NCBI GenBank assembly: GCA_947085525.1
Contig: CAMTWU010000003.1
Span: forward strand, 25,866-89,865
Length of the DNA: 64,000 bases
Origin: an uncultured Candidatus Saccharibacteria bacterium
GTDB taxonomy: Bacteria; Patescibacteriota; Saccharimonadia; Saccharimonadales; Saccharimonadaceae
Direction of reading: 5' to 3'
Shown here in pieces: positions 52,785-55,689 of the stretch (the stretch's first letter is position 1; each line of letters starts with the position of its first letter). Both the position numbers and the translations under genes were made by a program. Under the pieces are notes generated by a model. It made no database searches and was not told the origin of the DNA. It worked only from the letters and a program-made list of their open reading frames with translations.

Positions 52785-53312
52785 ATGAGTTTTGCATTAA
52801 TCGACAAAGTCAACAAAGCGCAGATGAAGCCGTCTGTTGTTGATGCTCGTAGTGGTGACACAGTCAAAGTCCACCAAAAGATTAAAGAAGGTAACAAAGA
52901 ACGTATCCAGATATTTGAAGGCGTTGTTATCCGTACTGATCGCAAAAACAGCCACACTAGCCGTATCACTGTACGCAAAATCGCCAGTGGTGTTGGTGTC
53001 GAAAAAAGCTTTCTACTACACAGCCCATTAGTCGAAAAAGTCGAAATCGTTCGTCGTTCTAAAGTTCGCCGTAACTACCTCAGCTATTTGCGAGCTCGTA
53101 GCGGTAAGAGTGCTCGCCTAAAAGGTACTGATTTCGACCGCTTGGCAGTTAATGATGTACATGATCCTAAAGCCGAAGCTGAAGCCTTACGTTTGAAAGA
53201 AGAAGCTGCCAAGGCAGCAGCCGAAAAAGCCGAAGCAAAAGCCGCCGAGGAAGCTGAGCTTGCTGCAAAACAAGCAGAAGTCGAAGCTCGTCACAACGAG
53301 ACCAAAGAATAA
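52785..53312 (+). CDS. rplS: 50S ribosomal protein L19 with a C-terminal Ala/Glu/Lys-rich extension of about 60 aa
   Basis: The core GDTVKVHQKIKEGNKERIQIFEGVVI...RKIASGVGVEKSFLLHSP.VEKVEIVRR.KVRR is canonical bL19. Residues from about 115 to 175 are low-complexity (AEAEALRLKEEAAKAAAEKAEAKAAEEAELAAKQAE). Confidence 0.9.
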   Translation: MSFALIDKVNKAQMKPSVVDARSGDTVKVHQKIKEGNKERIQIFEGVVIRTDRKNSHTSRITVRKIASGVGVEKSFLLHSPLVEKVEIVRRSKVRRNYLSYLRARSGKSARLKGTDFDRLAVNDVHDPKAEAEALRLKEEAAKAAAEKAEAKAAEEAELAAKQAEVEARHNETKE

Positions 53313-53358: not shown

Positions 53359-53380
53359 AGTTTAAAAAAAAAGAAGACCT

Positions 53381-53415
53381 CCCGGGTCGACACCAAATGA
53401 ATGGTGCCGCCCGGG
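53381..53415 (-). terminator. Hairpin plus U-run terminating the 54-codon minus-strand ORF
   Basis: CCCGGG..CACCA / TGGTG..CCCGGG, an imperfect stem of about 13 bp. On the minus strand it is followed by aggtcttc and then a T9 run (plus-strand A run 53364-53372). Confidence 0.5.
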
Positions 53416-53502
53416 TTAGGTCCGTCTTTGTGATCCAACTGCGCCGGAAAAACCGACTAGCCCTCCCGAGCTAGGATCTACAAAGGTGCGCGTCGCTGAG
53501 GA

Positions 53503-53667
53503 TCAGTCCGGGTTGAAGCCGGCGATGCCGCCGGTGGCGGAGTTGGCCTTGGTCGCGTTGCGCGCGTGCGTCGAGGAGGTCGTGCTGATCTGCATTTCGT
53601 TCTCAATTTCGGAGATGTTTCCGAGGGGTGTGCCGCGAGCCGCGGCGAGGGAATGCAGGTGCTTCAT
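53503..53667 (-). CDS. 54-aa ORF with extreme GC3 bias, unknown function (below the cutoff of the ORF track)
   Basis: MKHLHSLAAARGTPLGNISEIENEMQISTTSSTHARNATKANSATGGIAGFNPD. 47 of 54 codons end in G or C. The promoter is near-consensus and there is a downstream hairpin. The SD is weak. Confidence 0.45.
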   Translation of the reverse strand: MKHLHSLAAARGTPLGNISEIENEMQISTTSSTHARNATKANSATGGIAGFNPD

Positions 53668-53732
53668 ATAGATGAACCAACTTTCTCTACTCGTCTTTCA
53701 TTTCCACCAGGTGGTTACCTGATTTACATAGC

Positions 53733-53761
53733 ATAGTATCATATATTAAAAAACTTGTCAA
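53733..53761 (-). promoter_or_regulatory. Near-consensus sigma70 promoter driving the 54-codon ORF
   Basis: On the minus strand: TTGACA (53761-53756), a 17-nt spacer, then TACTAT (53738-53733). Confidence 0.6.
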
Positions 53762-53801
53762 CACTTTTGTCAAACTATTTTGAAACATAAAAATAGGCAA
53801 G

Positions 53802-53848
53802 AAAAAACCTTCGTGACGAGTGGTGCTTTTTAGGGCACCACTCGTCAC
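53802..53848 (-). terminator. Strong intrinsic terminator (perfect 14-bp stem) for a minus-strand transcript
   Basis: GTGACGAGTGGTGC (53813-53826), an 8-nt loop, then GCACCACTCGTCAC (53835-53848). On the minus strand it is followed by gaagg and TTTTTT (plus-strand A6 at 53802-53807). Confidence 0.7.
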
Positions 53849-54121
53849 AGATAACCAGGAGGGAGAAATCAGGTACCCGGAAAGTTACAGGAACTAGGCG
53901 GTCGTGTGATTTCAATTTTTACTGCAGGTACTGCATGCTGCCCTTTTGGGGACTCGTCATCAGTGCGTCCTTGGTTTACTACCCCAATTGAATGCGATGA
54001 ACCATCCAGGGTTCGAACTGCTATCGGGTAGGACTACTGCGCCTTCGTATAAGTTTTTTCTTGCCAGTGTTTGTATTGGTACTTCGAGACCTCTGCATCC
54101 ATGCATGTTTCTCGATTACTC
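53802..54121 (-). ncRNA. Candidate unclassified non-coding transcript of about 320 nt
   Basis: It is bounded by the promoter at 54156-54128 and the 14-bp-stem terminator. Internal hairpins include TCGAGA..TCTCGA, CTACCC..GGGTAG, GAACC..GGTTC and TGCAG-tac-CTGCA. The only ORFs are at most 49 codons and lack an SD. Confidence 0.35.
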
Positions 54122-54127
54122 ACTATC

Positions 54128-54156
54128 AGTATATTCCTCACGCTTACGCTTGTAAA
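54128..54156 (-). promoter_or_regulatory. Sigma70-type promoter of the candidate ncRNA
   Basis: On the minus strand: TTTACA (54156-54151), a 17-nt spacer, then TATACT (54133-54128). Confidence 0.55.
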
Positions 54157-54172
54157 CACTTTTTTGTATGAA

Positions 54173-54199
54173 ATACAAAAAACTACCATTTAGGTAGTT
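54173..54199 (-). terminator. AT-rich hairpin plus U-run ending the rightmost minus-strand unit
   Basis: On the minus strand: AACTACC-taaat-GGTAGTT, then TTTTT. A second hairpin, TTTTTTGTAT-ttc-ATACAAAAAA, abuts it. Confidence 0.5.
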
Positions 54200-54391
54200 T
54201 GAAAGATGTTTCTATAAAAATGAGACAAGGAAATTGTGCTGGTGGACGGTGCGTAAAGCGCCGCCCACCAGCTGCAACATGGATGTCGTCGACACAGGCG
54301 TGGTGTGTTCCTGGTCTCGACGCAATGAGTACGAACAGACGAGTGACAGTCCGTGTCATTGCTTCCATTTGTGCATCGTGTAGTAAGACTA

Positions 54392-54427
54392 CGCCACATG
54401 AGAACTATCCATAGCTCTCATGTGGCG
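54392..54427. repeat. Perfect 12-bp inverted repeat with a 12-nt loop
   Basis: CGCCACATGAGA-actatccatagc-TCTCATGTGGCG. No U-run follows on either strand. Confidence 0.9.
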
Positions 54428-54762
54428 AGTTGACCAGAGGTAGCAACTTCGCTTGTTATTCGTCCTTCTCGGCAGGAACGAACAACGCCTCTGGCACACT
54501 TGTGGGTGAGTGGCTAGCGACCGCCGAAGCGAGAAACGCATTCTTGCGCGGCGCCGCCTCCTCCGCCACGACGGTTCATGCCGCTGCCGCCCTGACAGTG
54601 ACCACGAAAGCCACCGCCATTGCGTCACTTGACCTTTTCGCCAGTCTGGCGATTTGTTCCGCGAATCCCTACCATCGCATCTCCTTGTCTCGATTGAAAA
54701 CGGATGTTCTCAATTATCTTTTATATTAATACGCCTAGGCTCAATAGTCTATAGTAGACGAC

Positions 54763-55689
54763 ATGATAGTTGGAATTGACGAAGTAGGACGGGGTGCATG
54801 GGCAGGGCCACTAGTCGTTGGGGCGGTTGTACTGGGCGGTGCACAGATCGATGGTTTGACCGATAGCAAAAAGCTAACCGCAAAGCGTCGCCGAGAACTG
54901 GCGAGTGAAATCAAAGAAAAAGCTATGGCGATTGGTTTGGGTTGGGTATCAGCTGAGACAATTGACAAGATTGGTTTATCCGAAGCACTAAAAATGGCGA
55001 CCAGACTAGCGGTCAAAGAAATAAATGTTGAGTACGACGAGATCATTATAGATGGCACAATCAAACTACTGGATGATGATAGAGTTACGACAATGAAGCA
55101 AGCTGATTTGTTAGTTCCCAGTGTGTCAGCCGCCAGTATAGTTGCCAAAGTTGCTCGTGACTATTATATGAGTGAAGTTATTCACGCACAACATCCACAG
55201 TACAGCTTTGATCGACATGTTGGCTACGGTACGGCATTGCACTCCACGGCACTGACTGAACATGGGCCGATAGAACTACATCGGCTGAGCTTTACACCCG
55301 TCAAAAAAGCGCTAGGACTCGAAATATCACAACCAGTAAAGGTTGATAAAGTCGTTGAGACCGCAGGTCGTCAGGCAGAGGCTGTAGCTGCACGGTATCT
55401 TGCTAATCAAGGATATGAAATCTTGGCACAAAACTGGCGTACCAAATTATGCGAAATCGATATTGTGGCGCAAAAAGACCAGGTAGTACATTTGGTCGAA
55501 GTAAAATATCGCAAAAAGCAGACTCAAGGTGATGGCTTGCAAGCAATTACTCCTAAAAAATTACGACAAATGAAATTCGCTGCACGTATGTGGCAACATT
55601 GGCACGGATTCACGGGCGGCATGCAGCTGAGCGTCATATCAATGAGCGGCCAACCACCTCAGGTTGATGAATTTTTGGAAAGTATTTAG
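54763..55689 (+). CDS. rnhB: Fusion of ribonuclease HII and a YraN (UPF0102) endonuclease-like domain
   Basis: The N-terminal 190 aa or so is MIVGIDEVGRGAWAGPLVVGAVVL...DSKKL...ASIVAKV.RD (RNase HII). The C-terminal 110 aa or so is GRQAEAVAARYLANQGYEILAQNWR.KLCEIDIVAQK...VHLVEVKYR (YraN). Confidence 0.85.
   Translation: MIVGIDEVGRGAWAGPLVVGAVVLGGAQIDGLTDSKKLTAKRRRELASEIKEKAMAIGLGWVSAETIDKIGLSEALKMATRLAVKEINVEYDEIIIDGTIKLLDDDRVTTMKQADLLVPSVSAASIVAKVARDYYMSEVIHAQHPQYSFDRHVGYGTALHSTALTEHGPIELHRLSFTPVKKALGLEISQPVKVDKVVETAGRQAEAVAARYLANQGYEILAQNWRTKLCEIDIVAQKDQVVHLVEVKYRKKQTQGDGLQAITPKKLRQMKFAARMWQHWHGFTGGMQLSVISMSGQPPQVDEFLESI

Follow-up and report, generated by a model that had tools for sequence, protein, structure and literature searches.

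A minus-strand unit between rplS and rnhB

The window considered here is a stretch of 64,000 nt from an uncultured Saccharibacteria bacterium (C3:25866-89865 of the genome that we call G000, 764 kb, 43% GC and 96.75% complete), and our subject is a compact unit on its minus strand, lying in the 1450-nt spacer between rplS and an rnhB-yraN fusion, both of which are read on the plus strand. The unit (53364-53773) comprises promoters, a leader that starts with a hairpin, an open reading frame (ORF) of 54 codons, a 3' untranslated region (UTR) and a terminator (Table 1). Judged from sequence comparison, it is likely to be a real, lineage-restricted and monocistronic small-protein gene of one Saccharibacteria genus. 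The comparison covered nine species of this environmental genus, G000 and eight congeners (G001 to G008), one of which comes from Northern California groundwater. The order of rplS and rnhB is identical in all nine, and their spacer measures 500-1716 nt. The genus-restricted family of small proteins that emerges is new, and it has one odd property, a non-native codon usage that has been maintained for long.

The initial annotation of this region had described a TTGACA-17-TACTAT promoter, a leader of roughly 60 nt and a hairpin followed by a U run, and each of these stands. The promoter matches 10 of 12 consensus positions and has a TG-extended -10 element, the leader of the ORF is about 59 nt long, and there are two hairpins downstream, the distal one with nine U. 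Because this distal hairpin and its U run reach 53364, the unit extends some 17 nt beyond the left boundary first given to it. A second promoter overlaps the first, 12 nt upstream. The promoter block (TTGACAAAAGTGTTGACAAG..TGTGATACTAT) is conserved in G000, G008, G005, G007 and G001, and a TTGACA-17-TGaTACTAT promoter is conserved in G002, G003 and G004 too. Aligned over eight species, the rplS-proximal part of the spacer consists of the promoter block, the 5' hairpin, a variable G/C-rich body and the long terminator hairpin; promoter and both hairpins are thus conserved in eight of the nine species, G006 being without the unit. Each of the nine units of the genus (one genome has two) folds a 5' hairpin at the same position, with stems that differ between units (CAGGT/ACCTG, CAGAC/GTCTG, CGGGC/GCCUG, CAAGT/GCTTG). 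In the terminator hairpin, 97% of the cells across eight genomes are paired and 7 of 13 pairs show changes on both sides; its covariation score was reached by none of 500 shuffles, and pairing was 36-50% when the partners were slid. The conserved promoter, the covarying terminator, a terminator U run found on the minus strand only and the separate terminator of rplS, just past the end of the unit, together make a minus-strand transcript very probable.

Table 1. Features of the rplS-rnhB spacer and its flanks (window coordinates)
Feature	Position	Strand	Basis
rplS	52785-53312	+	
Intrinsic terminator: interrupted hairpin of ~20 bp (GGACCU..CCCGGGCGGCACC / GGUGUCG-CCCGGG..AGGUCU) and U9	53364-53423	-	fold, covariation
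Small 3'-UTR hairpin CTAGC-TCGGGAGG-GCTAG (53474-53457), then TCGGTTTTTC	53447-53474	-	terminator-like scan match
Antisense ORF, 61 aa	53486-53671	+	
54-codon ORF MKHLHSLAAARGTPLGNISEIENEMQISTTSSTHARNATKANSATGGIAGFNPD, with TGA at 53505-53503	53503-53667	-	third-position GC excess, peptide alignment, aligned stops
Palindrome GCCGCGGCTCGCGGC, the codons for A-A-A-R-G of the conserved motif	53632-53646	-	sequence, fold, alignment
Leader with weak Shine-Dalgarno-like AGAGAAAG; ATG inside a small local hairpin, UUCAU-CUAU-AUGAA	53668-53705	-	
5'-terminal hairpin, 7 bp, loop AACC, ~3 nt past the predicted start near 53726	53706-53723	-	minimum free energy structure
Tandem sigma-70-type promoters	53733-53773	-	pattern scan and sequence reading
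Promoter 1: TTGACA (53761-53756)-17-TACTAT (53738-53733), extended -10 TGaTACTAT (53741-33)	53733-53761	-	
Promoter 2: TTGACA (53773-53768)-17-TTTAAT (53750-45)	53745-53773	-	
Middle unit	53802-54156	-	
rnhB-nearest unit	54173-54751	-	
rnhB-yraN fusion	54763-55689	+	

Codon composition of the 54-codon frame

The ORF was first singled out for its codons, 47 of 54 ending in G or C, and the recount agrees: over sense codons, GC at the three positions is 0.52, 0.54 and 0.87. None of 20,000 shuffles reached its third-position excess. Set beside the ORFs of at least 150 aa in G000, with a third-position GC (GC3) of 0.40 (sd 0.07, maximum 0.72), it is the strongest GC3 outlier of the genome. C alone makes up 0.61 of its third positions, and its four-fold sites hold C at 0.65, G at 0.26, A at 0.06 and T at 0.03. 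An open frame of 54 codons is in itself unremarkable, with a chance of about 0.2 per frame at 64% GC by our own estimate; what carries the case for the gene is periodicity and the comparative picture, not the openness of the frame.

The predicted peptide, which includes the segment MKHLHSLAAARGTPLG, is hydrophilic and has a mass of about 5.5 kDa. Direct reading agrees with the earlier statement that it has neither Cys nor a transmembrane helix: it contains no hydrophobic stretch, and no Trp either. Such a product is probably disordered as well as hydrophilic.

Orthologues and age of the gene

ORFs of 38-56 codons, at the same place and in the same frame, are found in five of the nine species: G000 with its 54-aa peptide, G008 (MKTTIITLAAAHGTPVGSSNSDQVFGTDSSAATGGILGHKPAAHDDISDQLGFAPD), G005 (MTQNVLTPRAAARGSTSETLMSTTSNAADRGAHAITSDAAEASSG), G007 (MKFSNAPPLAAARGSTNGNTFSKYIAKISRHAGGGTHW) and G001 (MHARSPAAFSGSLTQIALEHDDDTAGREHGIANDNLIGGLHRECNSS). 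The coding signature that had been claimed for this frame, within a self-contained minus-strand unit, is thus shared by four congeners. GC3 in the orthologous frame is 0.82-0.92 in all five, and permutation p values for the third-position excess are <5e-5, 0.0017, 0.025, <5e-5 and 0.003 for the five orthologues. Purines occupy 0.64-0.71 of first positions. The positions of the ATG correspond among the five species and the TGA stops are aligned in four of them. In the alignment of the five peptides M1, A8, A9, G12 and G47 are invariant. The N-terminal motif M-(K/T)-x3-6-(L/P)-x-A-A-(A/F)-(R/H/S)-G-(S/T) is kept, as are a second, Gly-Gly-like anchor and a make-up rich in Ala, Gly, Ser, Thr, Asn and Asp; the remainder varies, length included. 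ATGGI(A/L)G and a C-terminal GF(N/A)PD are further common to the G000 and G008 peptides. The invariant Gly is encoded by GGC, GGT or GGG depending on the species, and the conserved Ala and Thr also occur in synonymous codons. In G008 the orthologue was called independently by the NCBI pipeline (MDO8336049.1, hypothetical protein).

The locus of G001 (L118) has an extra cassette in tandem, placed between the middle unit of the spacer and the rplS-proximal one, with its own promoter, 5' hairpin, strong Shine-Dalgarno (SD) sequence and terminator. It encodes a paralogue of 28 aa (MKNTVPVPASRGSTAVALLNTKPSVGVA, GC3 0.82) that keeps the residue motif and not the nucleotide palindrome, GCCGCGGCxCGCGGC, by which A-A-A-R-G is spelt elsewhere.

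Synonymous divergence (dS) between species of the genus is 0.5-1.35 in rplS and above 1.3, i.e. saturated, in the adjacent malic-enzyme gene, so that unconstrained sequence in this place would be randomised. In the tree of the malic-enzyme gene, G000 falls together with G002 and G004, which lack the ORF (support 0.87). Since the carriers of the ORF do not form one clade, this type of ORF is probably older than the splits inside the genus.

Protein or RNA

Translation of the 54-codon ORF seems to us fairly likely on comparative grounds, and a number of observations weigh against it. In G002, G003 and G004 (loci L045, L043 and L014) the same promoter, 5' hairpin and terminator enclose an unrelated body of about 50% GC without periodicity, and G006 has no unit at all. 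The SD is weak in G000, as the initial annotation had cautioned (AGAGAAAG lies at least 13 nt from the ATG), and also in G008. The 3' UTR and terminator (53381-53495) are 79% identical between G000 and G005, more than the ORF. Gene callers missed the other four orthologues, which are also absent from a collection of 15 billion proteins. Because no homologue is found outside the genus, the family rests on five to six sequences, short and of low complexity. AlphaFold, run on the shallow five-sequence alignment, predicted no secondary structure (predicted local distance difference test score 54, predicted template modelling score 0.14), a result that fits disorder and would equally fit a non-protein. 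Lastly, the similarity of translations across species is as high in the antisense frame that shares the wobble positions as in the sense frame (z 2.44 in both; 0.8-1.9 in the other four frames).

The foremost alternative is a small RNA of about 360 nt, non-coding or mainly so, whose functional parts would be the promoter, the 5' hairpin, the GCCGCGGCxCGCGGC hairpin, the 3' UTR and the terminator, and whose ORF would be incidental to a G/C-rich body. The different body in three species, the absence from G006, the conservation of the 3' part and the AlphaFold result make a non-coding or dual-function RNA a live rival, though in our view one of rather low probability. The RNA elements are indeed the best-conserved parts of the unit, which as a whole folds better than its shuffles (z -3.65), and G001 keeps the stem of the palindrome (GCCGC-TTTTA-GCGGC) while the residues change. 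The ease with which a frame stays open at this GC content, the poor SD of G000 and a cassette that lacks a homologous ORF in three species point the same way. Yet a purely RNA-based account does not explain a three-base periodicity found in the same frame in five orthologues at saturated divergence, nor the correspondence of starts and stops across species. The coding sequence does not exceed its synonymous permutations in structure, and the G001 paralogue conserves the residue motif (SRGST) in the absence of the stem. The constraint on the palindrome may thus be on RNA, on protein or on both. No RNA family came to light either: at gathering score Rfam 15 matched a single tRNA in the whole window, and at E<=10 only chance-level matches arose between 53200 and 54900. 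Models of 6S and signal recognition particle (SRP) RNA had no match anywhere in G000, and its RNase P RNA and transfer-messenger RNA lie on another contig.

If the small-protein gene is preferred, its expression can be pictured as follows. One or two strong promoters would start transcription near 53726, and the RNA would begin with the short hairpin and the leader of about 59 nt, whose ribosome-binding site is weak in G000 and good in G007 (AAAGGTGATcgaATG), in G001 (GAGGTGAatATG) and in the G001 paralogue (GAGGTGATCA). It would carry the 54-codon ORF and a 3' UTR of about 80 nt, and end at the long hairpin and U9. Terminal hairpins and a G/C-rich body would give a long-lived mRNA. The peptide would be made in the cell, as a small protein with a binding or regulatory role that it would exert through its N-terminal motif, its tail evolving fast.

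Two features of the unit stand somewhat apart from this picture. The loop of the small 3'-UTR hairpin contains an SD-like GGGAGG, and the U run after this hairpin is not conserved. The 3' UTR, which also contains a GGATCAC box, could have a function of its own. In G002, G003 and G004, the body of the unit contains a different short ORF of 32-37 aa ending in ..PPxNLPVPT(H/L)ExxL, frame-shifted or shorter in G003, and from its sequence the unit of these species looks as if the cargo of one expression cassette had been exchanged.

Foreign or maintained codon usage

The codon usage of the ORF looks foreign, yet the evidence points to maintenance rather than to a recent origin. The initial annotation had proposed a gene derived from a high-GC organism. 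In this account the ORF would be part of a gene acquired recently from such an organism, an actinobacterial host for instance, and not yet ameliorated, which we consider quite improbable. Its four-fold sites, rich in C and G, are the reverse of those of native highly expressed genes, and the genome does have other accessory genes of high GC3 (e.g. C1:3027-3860, 0.72). However, the ORF is complete and no fragment, and in five species, scattered across the tree of the genus, it occupies one locus and follows the same native A/T-rich promoter. All copies have kept a GC3 of 0.82-0.92 although dS is saturated in the flanks, and the GC3 of the adjacent malic-enzyme gene is 0.32-0.44 in every species. 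Over such a time a neutral import would have been stripped of its frame as well as of its G/C-rich third positions. From the shared locus, the saturated flanks and the uniform GC3 it follows that the G/C-rich third positions are maintained, and are no trace of recent import, in so far as sequence can tell.

Neither a donor nor an outside homologue was found. A word-indexed search of 5.8 billion proteins returned no homologue candidate, phmmer gave 0 matches among 1.8 billion representatives, and a profile of the five peptides recovered from proteins only the G008 orthologue. Candidate phyla radiation and Actinomycetota genomes had been named as places to look for homologues; same-frame orthologues did turn up in the congeners, but the profile had chance-level matches only in 400 genomes of the class, of which 168 belong to the same family, and in 400 Actinomycetota genomes a single one, also at chance level, with the limit that unannotated small ORFs of a donor could have gone unnoticed. 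Collections of plasmid and phage DNA gave no match, and neither rplS nor the peptide was on record on another contig in exact look-ups. Scans of genome and metagenome contigs with the promoter pattern TTGACAAAANNNTTGACAAGT, which is too loose, picked up mostly unrelated bacteria and re-found four members of the genus.

What maintains these codons? Native translational selection is ruled out because EF-Tu, L7/L12 and other highly expressed genes favour A/T at four-fold sites (C 0.08-0.13, G 0.01-0.06) and prefer C only in two-fold pyrimidine families. A specific mRNA fold finds no support either: in each orthologue the coding sequence has a minimum free energy no lower than that of synonymous-codon permutations (z -1.5 to +0.5). 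We infer that the force might be a general stability of the mRNA, with fewer A/U-rich nuclease sites in addition to the 5' and 3' hairpins.

Choice of strand

GC3 alone cannot pick the strand, since the plus-strand ORF opposite the gene shares its wobble phase and has a GC3 of 0.84, just as the initial annotation had warned of this antisense frame. Cross-species similarity fixes the phase and not the strand. As the two frames tie in that score, the strand call rests on the minus-strand promoter, the terminator and the correspondence of SD, ATG and stop. That the plus-strand ORF is the real gene, and the minus-strand one its shadow, is very improbable in our view. It is open in five species (61-83 aa), equals the sense frame in similarity and has an AGGAT 9 nt before its GTG. 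However, it has no plus-strand promoter and sits past the rplS terminator hairpin and a second hairpin. Its starts (GTG, ATG, TTG) and its ends do not correspond between species, and it overlaps the conserved minus-strand promoter and leader. Its products, rich in Cys, Arg and Trp, resemble antisense translations, and G would dominate its third positions (0.61). Moreover, any GC3-rich gene can be expected to have an open frame in its shadow, since stops there need the sense codons TTA, CTA or TCA.

The product and its possible relatives

The predicted minus-strand gene is like other lineage-restricted small proteins of bacteria (below about 60 aa) in its size, its monocistronic layout and its absence from family databases, and such proteins too are mostly missed by gene callers and kept only in close relatives. 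It is unlike them in having held a GC3 of 0.82-0.92 over saturated divergence, in genomes with a GC3 of about 0.4 and against the preference of highly expressed genes. We know of no described small-protein family with such a maintained, non-native GC3.

Precursors with a leader and a hypervariable core (double-glycine bacteriocins, pheromones, prochlorosin-type peptides) offer another comparison. Here too there is a conserved N-terminus, a near-invariant Gly-Gly-like position followed by a short free tail, and more than one cassette per locus. Unlike in those precursors, the conserved part is only about 15 residues long and does not match the LSxxELxxIxGG leader, there is no Cys, no C39 peptidase and no nearby modifying enzyme, and the G005 orthologue reads RG instead of GG. 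The second Gly of the pair, G47, is the same in all five sequences, in an alignment that is shallow and in peptides where Gly is common. The earlier description of a leader-like first half fits the conserved N-terminus and variable tail, as a resemblance only. The secreted or processed peptide that had been proposed along with it found no support: there is no signal-like segment, the C39 peptidase family PF03412 has no match in the 96.75% complete genome of G000 (controls were positive), and, as the initial annotation had recognised no family, so Pfam and NCBIfam gave none for these peptides. Double-glycine export was likewise rejected for the lack of a C39 peptidase in the genome. A lasso peptide was rejected since the end of the G000 peptide (..A-T-G-G-I-A-G-F-N-P-D) would give a ring without a tail and the pattern of Thr at -2, Gly1 and Asp/Glu at 7-9 is not kept in the orthologues; the search for a lasso cyclase (Asn-synthase-like) returned only a partial PF00733 match of 23 bits, in a 349-aa ORF on another contig, and none near the locus.

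With the mRNAs of type I toxins (hok, tisB, fst, txpA) the unit shares the stand-alone intergenic cassette, a copy number that varies among relatives, a structured transcript with a 5' stem-loop and a poorly exposed start. Unlike those toxins its peptide is hydrophilic, without a membrane helix, and no antisense RNA partner was seen; since none of the five peptides has a hydrophobic stretch, this class was discarded. Dual-function RNAs (SgrS/SgrT, RNAIII/delta-haemolysin, SR1/SR1P) are also structured transcripts with RNA elements outside a short ORF, and here, in one pair of species, conservation is higher in the 3' UTR than in the ORF. In contrast with them, about half of the transcript is ORF and no target pairing or seed was identified. 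A target of a diversity-generating retroelement was rejected, the region having no second copy in the genome (blastn, word size 7).

As to what the peptide might do, an intracellular binder is a tentative suggestion, and an exported signal or effector a distinctly less likely one. We give very little credence to the putative scheme in which this epibiont passes a hairpin-capped, nuclease-resistant mRNA, or its DNA, to its high-GC host cell, whose translation machinery makes the peptide, the codon usage staying actinobacterial-like for that reason; if true, it would account at once for maintained non-preferred codons, a stable mRNA and a fast-evolving product. In a milder version, also putative, the peptide may be exported as a host-directed or pheromone-like signal whose leader is conserved and whose mature part varies.

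No part of bacterial genomes is charted as poorly as the small proteins, and knowledge of them is scantier still in the ultra-small, host-dependent Saccharibacteria; a search of the literature on small proteins or small RNAs of this group found nothing relevant. A gene caller would skip the present ORF, as it did four of the five orthologues, yet the comparative evidence says that it is real. The puzzle that it poses is how a GC3 near 0.85 was held for very long in genomes near 0.4 whose highly expressed genes choose other codons. Should the peptide be made, it provides a handle on the lineage-specific biology of an uncultured groundwater clade, and a test case of whether genomic codon bias can be overridden by mRNA stability or some other selective force. 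Should it not be made, what has been marked instead is a conserved and strongly expressed small RNA.

Other units of the spacer and of the genome

Over 30 genomes of the family (loci L014-L042) the length of the rplS-rnhB spacer varies between 42 and 1716 nt, and the minus-strand genes that it carries in several other genera (93-150 aa, with GC3 raised to 0.6-0.8) are unrelated. The spacer of locus L040 contains a tandem pair of paralogues of 106-108 aa. Given this variation in length and these unrelated genes, the spacer is, by its sequence, a family-wide hotspot for small accessory genes.

Two further minus-strand units share the spacer of G000. The middle one is a stretch of about 300 nt from promoter to terminator that is kept in all nine genomes of the genus, even in G006, from which the other two units are missing, with an invariant A-rich stretch (..ACAAACA..CAAGAAAAA(G)CTT..); it has no conserved ORF across the nine genomes and no Rfam match. 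The rnhB-nearest unit encodes, after a strong SD (CAAGGAG), a family of small Gly/Arg-rich peptides with members in G008 (MTGIRGTNCGGGKGGPARGGGGGAQEFTLRVGGSGRG), G001 (66 aa), G004 (MNQNNKGGGRVNRGGGGGPARGGGLREL) and, in similar form, G002. The copy of G000 reads MVGIRGTNRQTGEKVK up to an in-frame TGA (54627-54625), and past this stop the Gly-rich frame goes on for 36 codons; it could be a pseudogene, a truncated form or a case of read-through. The corresponding ORF of G005 (MKMFGVPAAGAHRGTL..), for which no SD was flagged, has an A-x-R/H-G-T motif resembling that of the 54-codon ORF.

The SRP pathway left no trace in the same 96.75% complete genome: neither the RNA models RF00169 and RF01854 nor the protein families PF02978 (Ffh M domain) and PF00448 (the SRP54-type GTPase of Ffh and FtsY) had a match, in protein searches where every control genome gave matches. 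RF00169 had no match in 30 relatives of the same order either. Outside the window, G000 has a second high-GC island (C1:2463-3860, up to 0.67 GC), which contains the 277-aa ORF of GC3 0.72 cited above. A shorter ORF in the island (C1:2552-2662) repeats the C-terminal motif of the longer one, RWDDDREL.L...W..SPTVR(D/E)C, and an accessory gene of imported origin, part of it duplicated, is the probable explanation of the island.

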